NCBI GenBank assembly: GCA_039815375.1
Contig: JBCBZJ010000022.1
Coordinates: 1-50,927, forward strand
Source: Verrucomicrobiota bacterium
Lineage (GTDB): Bacteria > Verrucomicrobiota > Verrucomicrobiia > Opitutales > Coraliomargaritaceae
DNA length: 50,927 nt
Direction: 5' to 3'
In this document: piece by piece, positions 1-21,000 of the stretch
Layout: each line of letters opens with the position of its first letter
Position numbering within the stretch: the stretch's first letter is position 1
Made by a program: the position numbers

Positions 1-3000
1 AGACTCATCATCGCCATCGCGAAATCGACATTGTTAATCGTCACGCCGATTGCATCTTCATTCACATCGTCATCATCGTCGATGTCGCCGTCACCATCTG
101 TGTCGGTCCTATATGGTCCACCAATACCAGCGAAACCATTTACGTCTTTAGCTCCTATCGTGAGTATTTCTACTTCTTGTGCTATGGTCGGCACACTGAG
201 CTCTGCTAGGAAGCCAGGCTCAATATCGACTACTGCAGTGGGCCCTAATTCAAAAGCGAACGAACCGCTAAGGTAGAGGAAGTCGAAGACCTCTATTTCA
301 GCAAACCCAATTTCCACTCCAATACGTGTGTTACCATCGAAATCAATATAGATTGGATTTTCAGGATCGCCCGTGCTGACTCGGAAGCCCGGGGGCACCC
401 CTTCATTCAGGTCGCCTGGGAAAGTGGACTCGAAGTCGAGTGCCGGATTGAACGGTGTTCCACTCCACTTCGAACCAAGGTTCAAATTGAAACGGATGTC
501 CTGTCCGGTCAGCTTCATCACTTCAGACGCACCCGCTTGGAAAGCAAATTCAGAAGCCTCCGCTGTCGCAGCGATCAACGTGGGGAAATTAGGAATTGGG
601 AATGCAGATGTGAACATGCTAACTGCAAAGTTCAAATCATCGATGGCGAAACCAAAGAAGTCATCCTGTTCGGCGAATGACTTATCAAAATCGAAGTCAC
701 CGATACCTGCAAAGGCCTTCAAGTTGGCGCCTCCTAGGCTCAATGACTCCATTGGTAGGTTCTCAATGGTAGAGAAGTTCTCACCAATAGTGACCCCAGC
801 AACACTGCCAACTGCACTGGCAAGCGAATCAAGTCCGAGCGAACCAAGGGCACTACCGAGTGTCGCTGGAATACCTGTAGCCAGATTAACATTATAGACG
901 GGGCCCTTTTCAAAAGCGAGCGATCCAGACAAGTAGAAGAAATTCGCGATGGTGACTCTCGCTTCGGCAATTTCCAAGCGGATGAGCTCGTTGCCATCGT
1001 GATTCAAGTAAGCTGGTGCGCCACCAGTCTCCACTTCAAGAGCGGGTAGCGTCACTGTGGTATCTTCCATCAATGCCGCAGCGTTCGCCGAAGTCAGTGA
1101 AACCTCATAGCCATCCAAACGGCTACCCGTGACAACCACATCTCCGATGTCGATACCATCAAGTTCTGCAAAAGCGTTTCTGATGGCATCAATGGCCTGT
1201 GCACTATTTTGGTCTGCGGTTAAATTGAAGTTCGTTGAACTTGAAGAATTCTTAATCCCAACCTCACCAAGCACGCGAGCTGGGATATAGAAGGTACCAT
1301 CGTCGTCTGCTTCGATGTCACTACGAACAGTGTTATAGATTGGACGAGCCGTCACGATATCGCCAATCAACTCACCCCCGATATTCAAATCAACTGAGAC
1401 GTCTTGTCCGAAAATCTCCATCAAGTCTTCGAACCCATAGACACCAAGTTCCTCAGCGGTAACTGCCAGCGAGAGCACCTTTTTGGGAGAGAAGAAACTT
1501 GGCAAGTCGGCTTGGTAGAATCCAAGTGCCACATCTACATTTTGAATGCCGAAGCCTACGAGGTCACCTTGCTCTGATAGTGGCACATCAAAGTTAGGCG
1601 TGCCCACTCCGACGAATATCGAGACATCTGTCGCACCGAAACTAACCCCTTCGAAGGTGACATCGGGGATCACAGAGTAATCAGTTGGATCAACACCTAG
1701 CGTATCCAACAAATCGAGGAATGTTTGAAAATCATCTCCAAGTGCAGTACTCAATACGTCTTGGATACCGGATATGTCAGACGGCAGGCTAGTTGCCATA
1801 TCCGCGGTGAACGATTCCCCTATGGTAAGCGTAAAATCACCACGCATATGGATGAAATCACCGATATTTATGCTCAGGTTCGGTAGTTCAATCGAACCAA
1901 TGATTCCATTAATACCAATCGAGAGGTTTATGTTTTTGAGACTATCAAAGCCATCGATTAACCATTGTGGTGCCCCAACAGGGAACTCAGGAACCAAGTC
2001 CAAGAGGCCGGACAACGAAATGACCGGAATGAGGTCGCCTGTGTCAGGCAATTCGAATGCGAAGTCGAATGTGGTTTCAAATTCGAAGAGATCGAAGAGT
2101 CCGATTCGGCCCGTCATTGCAACTCGAAGGAAGTTGGAGTCGTAATCGATGTTCAGGCTATCGCCAAGTGTTCCGATTGGGATATCAAGCCCCAAACCAT
2201 TATTCAAACTCGTGAAATCAACGTAGGTGAATGGGACCGGATAGCCATTGAAGAAGGCTCCATTAAATTCGAAAATAACATCTTCCGCCTCCAATGTGAC
2301 AAACGGTGATGTACCGACTAGACCGACTGAGTCAGCCGTTGCGGATAGAGCAAAGAAGTTGGCTGGTAATGTTTGGCCTCCACCTAGAGTCGGTGTTAGC
2401 ATCGCAAACGCAAAATCAAGATCGACCACTTCGAAACCAATCCTTGGTCCACCATCAATATCAATTCCGGCAAACGCATCGACATCCTGCCCCGCAATGA
2501 TCAATGCAGACGCATCAGCAGTCACCGTGGTGCCCGGCAGACGGAAATCAACATCGCTGATTGTCTTACGTTGGAAGGTGACTCCACCTTCGATCGAAAG
2601 AATGCCAGCAATTTTCGCGGTCGCAGTGCCAACCGTTGCCTCGATTAAATCAGTGGTGTAATCAAGAACGACAGGATCCGTTGTCGTGCCTGTTGCGACA
2701 CTGTAACCAGCAGTGGTACCACCTTCAGTAAGGTCCGCAGTAAAGAGTGGGTTGTTGCTGAAGTTAACACCCACCAACACATCTTGAAGTGATAAGTCGA
2801 TGATATCTTCAAAACCAACAAAACCAACTTGGTCTGCAGTGGCTTTGAGCGCAATAAACTTAGTGCCGACAACTACATTCGAAGCAGGCGCCAGGATATT
2901 TCTCTGAGCCAACATAAGCGCCATACCGAAAGTTAAGTTATCAACCACTAGACCCAGCGCATCTTCATTCGGATCACTCAGGACTCCGTTTTCAACTGTA

Positions 3001-18000: not shown

Positions 18001-21000
18001 CTTCTTCTGGTGCACTCGCGAGCAGGTTCCACCGACCATTGAGGCGGACCATCGCGCGAGCTTGCTGTGCACCCGTTATCTCCTGAGCGATTTTTGTAAA
18101 TTGAGACCAGAAAGCAGGTGCCTCACCATTAAAACTCCTGAGCGCTTGAAGACGTTCAAACTGCTCTGGATGGGGTTTCTCGAAGTTTCTAATTTCCACA
18201 GACAAACACGTTAATAGTGAGAAAACACGAAAGCTTAAGAAAACGTCTAATTGACGGAAACAGCTGATTGAACGACGGACAGAAGATCGTTTACGCGAGG
18301 ACCAGGCGCGATCTCAGCACTCTGTGGCGCGAGTTTGACCCGAGCGCGCAGGCCAGGTTTCACACTACGGTCTTTGTTATCTGCCAGAATTTTCACCTCC
18401 AGCAACCCACTAGCAGAATCGACGCGAGGATCAATAAAGTCGACGATACCGGCTAGTTCCGGGACGTTTTCTTCGAGCTCAGGAAAAGTGAGAATCACTC
18501 CGCGCCCCACAGGAAACTTTCGCGCCTCCTCAACGCTTAGATACAAACGAACGTAAATCTGATCGAGATCAACAACTCGAAACATCGGCTCACCCACGGA
18601 AACCATCTCGCCGATTTCGTTGTTACGCTCGACCACAATACCCGAAATCGGCGATCGAATTTCTCTCAGCCGAACGGCTTCCTGAGCGATCTCGAACTGA
18701 AGCTGCGCTAGACGCAATTCGATCTCACTGGCCAATGCTTCGTCTTCACTGATCAGTTTCTCACTGAACAGGTTCTGCGCTCCCTTACTTTCAAATTCAC
18801 GTTTACGCAACGCCGCAGCGGCTCGCTCCATATCAAGCTCAACGGATTTGACATAGAGTTGGGCTAATTGATCACCGGCCTTCACCTCGGCTCCCTCGCG
18901 AACTTGAAGCTCGGTTATAAAGTTCTGAACGGGGCTGGAGAGGATAACCTCCCTGAAAGGTAGAACCAAGCCCGAGACGGAATCGGCATAACAAGCCATC
19001 GAAGTAGCCAGCCCGATGATCGTGAGAAACGCTGTTTTTTTCATGAAAAAGACTTAGTTTGCCGCAAAGGTCAGGTCGAGATTCAGTTGGTCACCCAGCG
19101 AACCTGTCACAACGTATAGTTGGGCCACTGCACGAAACAGTTCTACCTCGGAAGCAAGCGCACGCGTCCGTGCAAAACTCAAATCGCGCTGCTGGTTCAA
19201 AACATTGTAACTAGTCGTGAGCCCCGAGGAGAGGCGTCTTTCCTCAGACCGCAGTGCTTCCTCGGCAAGACGCACAGCTTCATTGGCGAACCCGATCCGT
19301 TCCTGAGCCGCTTCAACCTCACGCATACTATTATCCAGGAGAACCAGTAACTGCACCTCTGTCTGCTTCGCGGTCATCAAAGCCTGAGCCTGCACTCGCT
19401 TCGCAAGAGAAACCTGGGCGCGATCCGCACTCCGATCCAGTGACATGGAGAGGACCAAACCGACCGACCAGTCTAGGCGATCACGATTCGAAAAGTCTTC
19501 AAAACTGCCCCCAAAGCTATCCTCCAGTCCATTGGTTCCAACGGTCGCCTCAAGGTCGAGTTGAGGGAGCAACTGGTTCTTTGCGAAGGCGACACGAATG
19601 CCTTCAGCACGTGCTCGCTCCAAGGCAGCCAGATAAATCGGATTGCGGACAAGCATCTCTTGCCCAATGACGATCCGGTCTTTCTCAGGCGCCTTGAGTA
19701 CGTCACTCACGCTGCCACGAATCGGAGCCTCCTGCCCGAATGTGTAATCCGTCCCCGTCAGCTCGAGTAGACGGTTTTGGCGCTCGGCAAGAAAAGTACG
19801 GGCCCCTACAACCTCCTCTTTGGCCTCTGCCAATCTAGCCTCTGCCTGCGTTACATCGATCGGCGACATGACACCCTCTTCGACACGGCGACGATTCTGG
19901 TCGATCAGATCGTTGGCAAGCTGGACCGCATCAACCTTCACTCGAAGGTTATCTAAGCCGAACTCAGTTTCCGCAAACGCCACCAGGATCTGAGCGATTG
20001 TTCTATCCACCTCCGAACGGAGTTGAAACTCTGTGCCCAGGCCCTCAGATCGTGCGAGATTCGTTGCCGCCAGATTCGTCTTAACACCACGATTTTTCAG
20101 CAAAGGTTGAATGACCTGTAACTGCGTTGTGGTCTGATACTCAGGAAAGAAAAGCGGCCCAGTGAGCGTAGATGGATTAATATTTCGATTGGTCGTATTA
20201 TCAAGACGACTCGTAGAGCTCGTAATGGCTACTTGCGTGCCGAAAGCAAATCGATCTTCCAAACGGAGCTCCAGGGAAGCGACTTTCTCTTCAAAAATCG
20301 AATCGATTTCATCAAGCGCAAGAAACTGCTGTCGATTTTGCGCGCGCTCCGACTCGCGGTAACGAATCGCGGAGGTCAGACGCGGCGCAAGAGAACCAAG
20401 TGAAATCGTGACCCGGTCCGTGGAGTTCAGTACTTCCATACGACCGATCTGTAGACTGAAATTGTGATCCAAGCCTTTCAGGATCCAATATCTGGCATCG
20501 TAATCCTCTCCAGCGTAATCCTTTAAAGAAGTGAACTCACTGCTGTTTTCGACAGAGCTCGGCTCGATAGATTCGGAGAGCGATTCTTCCGCGATAAGGA
20601 AGGCGGGCACACTGATGAGTAATAAAAGAACACGAATCTTTTTCATTAATATAGAGGGGATAAGCAGTAATTCAGTTCTGCGGGGTCAGCCAAATACAAA
20701 ATCATATGAAAATGCACCTAATCAAGGTCGCTTAATCAATAACTTAATAGAACTTTAATTTTGATCGAGTTACCCAAATTGAGCCGAAGCTTTCATTAGT
20801 CTGGAGTGGTTAATGATGTGTTCGATGTTATATATCAAGTCAACGCTGGGGCGTAGCCGACCGGAGGCCCAGCATTGGGTTAGTTGGTTGTTCTTCGACT
20901 TCCTTTTGAGCGAACTCAAGAGACGTGATGTATACCAGCAACCTGTGCAGTTTGAGATTGTTATACTTCCAGCGCCAGACGTTGCTGTTGTTAACCATTA

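Follow-up and report, generated by a model that had tools for sequence, protein, structure and literature searches.

What leaves the cell through an operon that sets a second SecA beside a membrane protease and TolC-type exit parts, and how is it recognized? The window we analyzed, a 50,927-nt contig of a Verrucomicrobiota bacterium, raises this question. Profile searches bore out the six-gene set, its order, and its single strand, the minus strand, as given by the initial annotation. The set begins with a 530-aa TolC-family outer-membrane channel (19054..20646; PF02321, E 1.5e-30), which has a hydrophobic N-terminus by hydropathy and scores under the TIGR01844 cut-off. A short membrane-fusion protein of 265 aa, an HlyD-type adaptor, follows (18247..19044; PF16576/PF13437, TIGR01730 over cut-off), and then a 615-aa protein (16358..18205) that joins a GAF domain (PF01590, residues 191-319), one transmembrane helix near residues 350-368 (hydropathy), and an adaptor region (HlyD_D23, 385-584). 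Downstream lie a 714-aa protein with an M50 site-2 zinc protease (14192..16336) and a short second SecA, SecA2, of 685 aa (12098..14155; PF07517, PF01043, PF21090). The candidate cargo gene starts 131 bp past SecA2, with an ATG at 11966, and runs off the contig end without a stop (3..11966); it encodes at least 3988 aa. Contigs from four public runs had zero insertions or deletions across positions 1-20000, and one extends 1,716 nt past the window start; the run behind that contig could be where the window's DNA itself came from. The host genome has one further SecA, full length at 1010 aa; a second M50 fusion was not found in it.

Loci of this type were described by Kamneva, Poudel and Ward in 2015 as "secondary SecA_DEAD" loci with a short SecA, M50/HlyD, GAF/HlyD, HlyD, and sometimes an OEP (PMC4452313). 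The host locus matches in its short SecA without a wing region and its M50/HlyD, GAF/HlyD, and HlyD genes, and neither has an ABC transporter. The sections of the 2015 paper on this locus propose SecA, whose wing-scaffold domain is lost, as the ATPase and M50 as the pore; these sections name neither substrate nor signal, and the RRE is not described there. Cluster 4 of that locus is SapC, and Rhodopirellula has the module according to S2 Table of the paper. Since the survey was anchored on SecA, clades without SecA2 fell outside its subject.

The 714-aa protein, modeled by AF2 with a pLDDT of 82.5, is made of an RRE (PqqD-like) domain, the protease, and a C-terminal adaptor. The daptide protease profile NF041824 matches residues 19-404 (E 8.3e-50), at 170 bits and so below its 300-bit cut-off. 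The putative RRE, a predicted leader-binding site, covers about residues 19-100 (16037..16282, minus strand). In the model it has three strands (24-31, 34-41, 47-50) and then three helices (52-59, 67-81, 85-97), the predicted arrangement of an RRE with its leader beside strand 3 and helix 3. Its profile match to TfuB1 (6jx3) is weak, E 0.012, and close relatives carry a PqqD family annotation; a Foldseek search with the whole protein returned a match list of adaptors only, with no RRE among them. PF02163 is over cut-off, and the protein is polytopic, with six hydrophobic segments. The HEFGH motif stands at residues 209-213 (15698..15712), where it had been annotated; NPLLKFDG is also present, at 305-312 (15401..15424) and not 304-311. 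H209, E210, and H213 are invariant in 37/37 sequences of both subfamilies and in 110/110 close homologues, and the third zinc ligand, D311, in 37/37. The protein is a candidate protease. Its C-terminal part resembles MacA/AcrA/MexA in structure and profile comparisons.

The giant carries a leader, FRVEALEQRILLSA, at residues 9-22 (11901..11942, minus strand), with a predicted RRE-binding strand at V11-L14 and a candidate cut after R17. It contains the LEQRILLSA reported by the initial annotation, shifted by one residue (14-22, not 13-21). The reported NF012209 match is indeed over cut-off (20.4 versus 17 bits), occurs at a single place in the whole host genome, and, being N-terminal on a very long protein, marks the giant as a LEPR-XLL domain protein. 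The motif pattern used earlier hits a single ORF, the giant, among the genome's 23,062 six-frame ORFs, and a looser pattern hits 2 of 210 ORFs of at least 700 aa, one of which is again the giant. The match at the giant exceeds chance. LEPR-XLL proved too narrow a name, and the family also includes Planc_extracel-like and LEDRxLFD variants, which look like one family over several phyla. Among 51 aligned leaders, [LIV] occupies position -7 in 44, E position -6 in 41, and L position -4 in 50; the remaining E and R are invariant by construction, as the picking pattern required them. Planc_extracel (PF07595) and NF012209 both describe a motif of LExLExRxLLA type at the N-terminus of large surface proteins, like the leader, and both were previously without a machine. 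The giant's leader fits NF012209, not PF07595, and two module-linked relatives have weak, sub-threshold PF07595 matches. Studholme proposed in 2004 that the Rhodopirellula motif signals export, as cited in PMC8567305, where 52 Tuwongella genes are listed with the Planc_extracel motif.

A model of the leader in complex with the M50 protein scored 0.73, with 0.00 for the best of three controls, and passes a mark reached by 116/157 solved pairs versus 2/215 mismatched pairs, although resemblance to RRE-leader complexes already solved may account for the pass, and the fold of the leader itself is uncertain. Runs share at least 55% of contacts, with a partner pLDDT of at least 47. In the model, strand 47-50 of the RRE pairs with leader residues V11-L14, and the interface extends to H209, E210, H213, and D311. 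Daptides offer a parallel: their leader consensus, ELExMEAP, is removed by MpaP/DapP, an RRE fused to a site-2 protease (preprint 10.1101/2023.03.08.531785). MpaP/DapP is homologous to the RRE and M50 parts over residues 19-404 of the host protein, and ELExMEAP is in register with the module leader [LIV]ExLExR at places -7, -6, and -4. The host M50, however, carries a fused periplasmic adaptor, and its proposed substrates are proteins of 100-20,000 aa, whereas those of MpaP/DapP are modified peptides; the module has no daptide precursor or modifying enzyme, and NF041824 does not classify its protease as DapP. It is quite likely from the model that the leader docks on the cytoplasmic RRE as an extra beta strand, as in RiPP biosynthesis. 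The leader would then probably, by analogy with daptides, be handed to the fused zinc protease and cut, and the best guess for the site, a tentative one, is after the invariant Arg (LExR/xLLSA).

Is the leader tied to the module beyond this locus? We counted genomes anchored on the M50 gene, independently of the 80-locus SecA count in the initial annotation. With a broad leader profile, 41/46 M50-positive Verrucomicrobiota genomes have a leader versus 3/155 M50-negative ones (201 genomes: both 41, M50 alone 5, leader alone 3, neither 152), and removal of the 24 genomes that supplied training rows leaves 17/22 versus 3/155. NF012209 matches in frames of at least 615 aa fall in exactly those 14 of the 201 genomes whose M50 profile exceeds 700 bits. 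The counts are 52/66 versus 7/185 for Pseudomonadota (251 genomes), where the seven are weak matches in frames of 259-868 aa, and inspection of the 14 profile misses shows a leader giant next to the module in 4. For Planctomycetota they are 16/33 versus 1/88, and all three PF07595 matches there lie in M50-positive genomes. The sampled genomes include kin and are not independent, so Fisher p-values for these counts overstate their significance. The leader was not found despite an M50 fusion in 5 Verrucomicrobiota, 10 Pseudomonadota, and 14 Planctomycetota, nor in three of six full-length fusion cases in the phylum of genome G203; conversely, leader ORFs are present in drafts G052 and G115 (98% and 94% complete), with no M50 fusion found. 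Across 80 M50-profile loci, the motif is present in 10/30 other ORFs of at least 700 aa with a visible start, and in 8/11 if at least 1500 aa. The association also holds at a distance: closed genome G060 has a single module, and its three leader giants lie 150-700 kb from it. The leader depends on the module at the genome level. The fusion is common, since it was found in 46/201 Verrucomicrobiota, 66/251 Pseudomonadota, and 33/121 Planctomycetota, as well as on plasmids of E. coli and Citrobacter.

The cargo bodies are diverse (Ig, cadherin, MBG, YDG, RTX, DUF4347). The giant is acidic and Lys-poor, with degenerate repeats, each about 125-165 aa long, and a duplication of about 972 aa; its repeat model (pLDDT 92.7) has long beta strands. 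Neither a Sec-type hydrophobic signal nor an RTX repeat was found in its 3988 aa, and its C-terminus lies beyond the contig end. Relatives have 0-25 RTX nonapeptides; many leader proteins have them, and many complete ones have none. No common C-terminal motif was seen by eye among leader proteins, and some modules adjoin leader ORFs of merely 114-176 aa.

The proposal that SecA2 drives the system did not hold as a definition. SecA2 occurs in 15/46 M50-positive Verrucomicrobiota and is absent from 26/41 genomes with module and leader; five of five closed or near-closed module genomes have no second SecA, only a housekeeping SecA of about 1000 aa. Conversely, all 15 Verrucomicrobiota genomes with SecA2 have module and leader, and SecA2 adjoins the module in 82/101 members of one M50 clade. 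It is in 0/36 loci (13 with less than 2.5 kb of downstream flank) and 0/5 loci of two other clades, whose modules have leader-bearing neighbors, and it is missing from the annotated plasmid modules of E. coli and Azospirillum. SecA2 is a facultative component. The host's SecA2 is below every SecA/SecA2 model cut-off, and in pairwise alignment its last residue corresponds to residue 752 of the 1010-aa SecA; the part it lacks presumably includes the wing and the two-helix finger that act on SecY. No ABC transporter is in the operon, no conserved P-loop gene is near 45 further loci, and a PrtD- or LssB-type ABC over cut-off was found in 0/5 genomes tested, the host's included. In entire clades no ATPase gene lies close to the module, which counts against the explanation we favor.

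Known systems resemble the module in part. In PCAT type 1 systems, a C39 peptidase on the ABC protein reads and cuts an N-terminal double-glycine leader, with HlyD and TolC completing the path. The module shares the N-terminal leader, the peptidase on the inner-membrane component, and the adaptor-TolC exit, but has M50 instead of C39, no ABC, three adaptor-type proteins, and [LIV]ExLExR instead of double glycine. It has a membrane-fusion protein and a TolC channel, as in type 1 secretion, under the type-1-specific TIGR01843/TIGR01844 cut-offs, and lacks the ABC inner-membrane component. Gram-positive accessory SecA2/SecY2 systems also pair a second SecA with an adjacent giant surface protein whose N-terminus is special; unlike them, the module has a truncated SecA2 under the SecA2 model cut-offs, a TolC exit, and no SecY2 or Asp genes. 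In Chlorobium chlorochromatii, the giants Cag_663 and Cag_665 have an N-terminal LEPRxLL, are reported exported, adjoin TolC and SapC, and are co-expressed with a recent, horizontally acquired secA (preprint 10.64898/2026.03.19.712371). The preprint says that known transport signals are lacking and mentions neither M50 nor a peptidase. It also proposes C-terminus-first export and describes periplasmic retention, both of which count against our preferred explanation.

The suggestion that leader proteins are the cargo and the leader their signal gains support from co-occurrence in four phyla, unlinked leader giants, the RRE on the M50 protein, and the complex model. We put at roughly 0.7 the probability that [FYL]-x-[LIV]-E-x-L-E-x-R-x-[LM]-[LF]-[SADNT] proteins are substrates of an ABC-less, TolC-exit system with the RRE-M50-adaptor core and two further adaptors. 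The unfolded chain would pass the adaptor-TolC tunnel and fold outside. In one clade, the host locus included, the shortened SecA plausibly feeds the chain; the remaining clades would work with no dedicated ATPase gene nearby. More tentatively, RiPP leader machinery could have given rise to a distinct Gram-negative secretion class. Its RRE-site-2 protease, daptide-like and joined to a periplasmic adaptor, would form the inner-membrane entry to TolC without an ABC, read an ELExMEAP-like leader, and cut after Arg. Roughly one in four of the Verrucomicrobiota, Pseudomonadota, and Planctomycetota genomes sampled would use it, for cargo from about 100 to more than 20,000 residues long, and just one clade would drive it with a trimmed SecA.

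Could export instead proceed in two steps? SecA2 or the housekeeping SecA would push the same substrates, with the same leader, through SecYEG, the M50 protein would be a private signal peptidase, and adaptors and TolC would carry them across the outer membrane only. The housekeeping SecA, alone in genomes of SecA2-less modules, would supply the missing motor, no conserved ABC gene is nearby, and giants are reported to stay periplasmic without a partner cell (10.64898/2026.03.19.712371). We consider this unlikely: the leader has no Sec-type hydrophobic stretch, and an adaptor fused to a membrane protease fits a continuous tunnel. SecA2, moreover, stops short of the region that presumably engages SecY. 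The leader could also be a retention and release tag instead of the entry signal, with cargo leaving C-terminus first as in RTX systems, tethered by the RRE, and freed by an M50 cut, perhaps under GAF control. LapA/LapG is a precedent for tethered cargo freed by proteolysis, and the C-terminal signals of classical type 1 substrates show little conservation, so the diverse cargo C-termini are compatible with such a tag. Many cargoes contain RTX nonapeptides, as many as 25, and this together with the C-terminus-first proposal (10.64898/2026.03.19.712371) speaks for it. We find it rather improbable, given many complete cargoes without RTX repeats, the very short leader ORFs beside some modules, and no other component seen that could read a C-terminal signal.

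SecA2 as the defining motor, as framed by the initial annotation and the 2015 paper, draws on the 15/15 and 82/101 associations and is weakened by the 0/36 and 0/5 clades and the SecA2-less plasmid modules; we hold it highly improbable. As a universal feature, SecA2 is ruled out by SecA2-less clades with leaders. Least credible is hitch-hiking: mobile islands would spread module and giants jointly, and secretion of the giants would fall to a classical ABC type 1 system or another route. Modules are patchily distributed, IS elements lie on both flanks of the E. coli plasmid copy, and two drafts have leaders with no fusion found. Yet unlinked leader giants are almost confined to module-positive genomes, none of the five genomes tested has a PrtD- or LssB-type ABC over cut-off, and the likeness to daptides covers both RRE-protease and leader.

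The tag appears to be the address label of a widespread ABC-less, TolC-type export machine for many of the largest bacterial proteins, and is probably clipped off by it. The separate pieces are already in print; what is new is the link between leader and machine, together with the SecA2-free majority, and our literature search found no paper joining the motif (2004), the machine (2015), and the exported LEPRxLL giants (2026 preprint). If true, this names the machine that reads the planctomycete export motif, answers what the 2015 SecA/M50/HlyD/TolC module exports, and explains how Chlorochromatium symbiosis proteins of 20,000-37,000 residues exit the cell. RiPP leader logic would have been reused for protein secretion, and an N-terminal tag of 20 residues that sends a protein out in one step would have practical value. 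The model points to specific residues: L-4, E-3, and R-1 in the leader, and E210 in the protease.

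The window encodes, in order, a TolC-like protein, an adaptor, a GAF-adaptor, an M50-like protein and a short SecA (SecA2), followed 131 bp downstream by the giant, an open frame of 3988 aa cut by the contig end. Gene calls and domain searches of the window bore out the content and order of these six genes as the initial annotation had given them; the motifs it listed are also present, with its numbering off by one residue (LEQRILLSA spans residues 14-22, NPLLKFDG residues 305-312). The feature is real. The leader pattern of the initial annotation, [LIMV]ExRx[LMIV][LYHMF][SA]A, matched once among the 23,062 six-frame ORFs of this 3.56-Mb genome, which has one M50 fusion in total and one full-length SecA elsewhere. 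Nearest named homologues are Opitutales/Coraliomargarita proteins. A promoter and terminator scan gave signals no better than chance.

The M50-like protein is the core of the module, with 714 aa in three parts: RRE-like, M50 protease and a C-terminal adaptor. Residues about 19-100 are predicted to form three strands and three helices, and in this model they match the RRE/PqqD arrangement. Relatives carry the annotation "PqqD family," and the profile matches the RRE TfuB1 weakly (E 0.012); the model for the daptide RRE-protease aligns with residues 19-404 at E 8.3e-50, under the cut-off. In the M50 part, H209, E210, H213 and D311 are invariant in 37/37 sequences, with identity down to 20%. At E<=1e-30 the family numbers 4,018 representatives. 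Another, more remote RRE-M50 group (genomes G576, G588, G591 and G615, and G663:C65) scores 144-166 bits with the adaptor part unmatched; since four of its genomes have no leader match, their substrate may differ. At locus L168 (G386:C1:2956112-2958183) the M50 fusion is broken into two frames and the fetched flank has no leader protein; this is perhaps a decaying module.

Queries for the leader and the M50 fusion were run on identical genome sets. NF012209 matched in 18 of 201 Verrucomicrobiota, and the 14 with a match in frames of at least 615 aa are exactly the 14 with an M50 above 700 bits; the four remaining matches, weak and in 38-354-aa frames of fusion-less genomes, were discarded as noise. 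Another 32 Verrucomicrobiota have a more distant M50 fusion. We retrieved 40 module loci, and many of the distant type adjoin genes whose products start with leader variants such as LEDRILFDGA, LEQRQLLA and LESRELFAAA. A broader leader profile of 51 rows divided the 201 genomes into 41 with both, 5 with M50 only, 3 with leader only and 152 with neither. When the 24 genomes that had supplied training rows were removed, the leader was found in 17/22 M50-positive versus 3/155 negative genomes. The corresponding tally for 251 Pseudomonadota was 52, 14, 7 and 178; the seven leader-only matches are weak (frames of 259-868 aa), and 4 of the 14 M50-only genomes have a leader giant adjoining the module once the locus is retrieved. 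Among 121 Planctomycetota it was 16, 17, 1 and 87, and all three PF07595 matches fall in M50-positive genomes. (As a test, PF07595 at E<=0.3 was dropped: it matched 4/5 M50-positive and 2/5 M50-negative planctomycetes and 3/14 controls.) In the phylum of genome G203, comprising 101 genomes, the leader occurs in 3/6 with a full-length fusion, or 3/10 including partial ones, as four genomes with partial M50 matches of 144-166 bits were tallied both ways; the remaining genomes give 2 weak leader matches. The pattern, in which kin among the counted genomes are non-independent, is patchy inside families (3/17, 7/15) and recurs in four phyla. Linkage alone does not account for it, because the closed genome G060 has a single module, with its three leader giants lying 150-700 kb away. 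Co-occurrence in four phyla and these unlinked giants support the earlier proposal that leader proteins are the cargo and the leader their signal.

We also collected 80 loci by the M50 profile alone. The motif was present in 10/30 other ORFs of at least 700 aa with a visible start, and in 8/11 of those that reach 1500 aa, against a control of 2/210 ORFs of at least 700 aa in the window genome. Annotated plasmid modules, drawn from 61 records, have a leader giant in 5/5 examined. One SecA2-less module (L062, NZ_CP081785.1) is carried by E. coli and Citrobacter plasmids; in the record examined it lies between two IS elements and has a 4459-aa Ig/cadherin leader protein. Exceptions run in both directions. 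Two draft genomes have leader ORFs (G052:C31:2675-2758, G052:C16:69115-69192 and G115:C87:82865-82951) and no M50 fusion was found in them; these may be genuine exceptions or assembly gaps. The leader is missing in a minority of the fusion-positive genomes searched, and looser leader searches of M50-only genomes gave matches at chance level.

Some leader ORFs are short. In three genomes belonging to a single genus, SecA2-less modules are adjoined by tandem ORFs of just 114-176 aa (L029 2044-2872, L036 17662-18581) in which AAAxPH follows the leader; these ORFs have no Pfam match and are possibly small exported subunits or peptides. Three alphaproteobacterial modules have a DUF3467 gene between the giant and the GAF-adaptor (L063 12753-13094, L065 12744-13064, L066 17663-17959); it was not found in any of five genomes searched, including the window's.

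How might the leader be recognized? In the available part of a daptide preprint, the leader consensus is ELExMEAP, processing by the MpaB RRE requires both L(-7) and M(-4), and MpaP, an RRE-fused intramembrane peptidase, takes off the leader (10.1101/2023.03.08.531785). Of our 51 leaders, in which E(-3) and R(-1) are fixed by the pattern used to pick them, 44 carry [LIV] at -7, 41 carry E at -6 and 50 carry L at -4. Since both leaders fall in the same register, a cut after Arg is predicted, R17/I18 in the window giant. We modeled fusion residues 1-445 with a 36-residue leader and zinc. The complex scored 0.73 and the best control 0.00; the mark is attained by 116/157 solved and 2/215 mismatched pairs. 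Contact agreement between runs was at least 55% and partner pLDDT at least 47. In the model, the leader segment V11-L14 is paired to strand 47-50 of the RRE and to its helix 85-97; L14 contacts W246 and N324, both invariant, and the interface extends to the zinc ligands. This supports the predicted RRE-leader binding; the pass may also be an echo of solved RRE-leader complexes. Leader type tracks M50 clade, with D/E at +4 in 13/13 of one clade and 0/24 of another. We withheld a claim of co-evolution because linkage alone accounts for these clade-wise types.

The initial annotation had called the system SecA2-driven. SecA2 occurs in 15/201 Verrucomicrobiota, all 15 with fusion and leader, and 26/41 double-positive Verrucomicrobiota have none. 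In five of five genomes that are closed or nearly so and carry distant-type modules, the only SecA is one of roughly 1000 aa. In a midpoint-rooted tree of 142 fusion sequences, SecA2 adjoins the fusion in 82/101 members of one clade and in 0/36 (13 of them with short flanks) and 0/5 of two others. SecA2 is thus a facultative component, and "SecA2-driven" holds at most for the window's clade, because SecA2 is missing from many double-positive genomes and from the loci of two clades. Aligned with the 1010-aa SecA of the genome, the window SecA2 stops at the equivalent of residue 752, a point that we take to precede the SecA wing and two-helix finger. No conserved neighboring P-loop gene was found at 45 loci. 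Two related genomes have a P-loop protein of ~450 aa between the leader gene and the M50 fusion (L021 5667-7013, L027 5865-7229).

Whatever the route, the leader proteins are very probably the module's substrates. Overall, the most likely mechanism (probability roughly 0.7) is that the RRE would capture the leader, M50 would cleave it and the chain would move through a tunnel of adaptor and TolC, fed in by SecA2 in one clade only. The inner membrane may be crossed by the module's own channel or by SecYEG, and the chain may travel leader first or C-terminus first, with the leader as a tether. In its presumed mode of action the module resembles type 1 systems with a peptidase-containing ABC transporter (PCAT), but it does not belong to them, having neither ABC nor C39.

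The cargo bodies are mutually unrelated adhesin-type modules with 0-25 RTX repeats each, and their C-termini, judged by eye, have no common motif. The window giant is built from degenerate repeats of 125-165 aa and a duplication of roughly 972 aa. Its residues 300-620 (window 10107-11069, minus strand) are predicted to form a long antiparallel beta meander (pLDDT 92.7), reminiscent, by description, of the extended sheet reported for the Cag_663 N-terminal part (10.64898/2026.03.19.712371). Foldseek had no match to this repeat model at E<=0.001, and an Atlas search matched unnamed clusters only. We did not accept a porin fold, for which the best VIA-align Z was 9.9 at an rmsd of 10.6. The remainder of the giant gene was absent from the assembly when searched; more of it was assembled in run X1, because one X1 contig passes the window start (the contig end, window 1) by 1,716 nt.

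The leader and the module have each been orphans so far, and their link, the new element here, is well supported and open to direct testing. PMC4452313 describes the module, and its S2 Table lists it for Rhodopirellula baltica, Ruegeria pomeroyi DSS-3 (SPO2714-2718) and Methylobacterium extorquens AM1; in its accessible portions no substrate is named, and the SecA tree includes C. chlorochromatii twice. An excerpt of PMC8567305 cites work of 2004 in which RRLxxExLExRxLLA was proposed to act as a signal for export. Two LEPRxLL giants have been reported as exported (preprint 10.64898/2026.03.19.712371); in the part available, the authors see no known transport signal in them and suggest a SapC/TolC/HlyD route. 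We found no literature linking leader to module, in a search with poor coverage of subscription journals. The Pectobacterium MRP adhesin was considered as an already demonstrated cargo and rejected, since the review, as far as available, connects it with type 1 secretion of the LapG/LapD kind. A Ruegeria exoproteome paper does not mention SPO2716, and the sole "M50" in the accessible text of a tripartite-pump review is a residue number. A giant-gene preprint describes Omnitrophota giants with fused SecA-like domains and mentions neither LEPR, M50 nor TolC.

Elsewhere in the window, a lower-GC stretch holds a four-gene cluster (28322-33382, minus strand). One of its products is a 730-aa E2-E1-JAB fusion and another matches the PADLOC RTasMBL/LmuA models; the cluster looks like a ubiquitin-type anti-phage system. 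At the border of this stretch lies an integrase-core (rve) transposase-like gene (24010-24912, plus strand).
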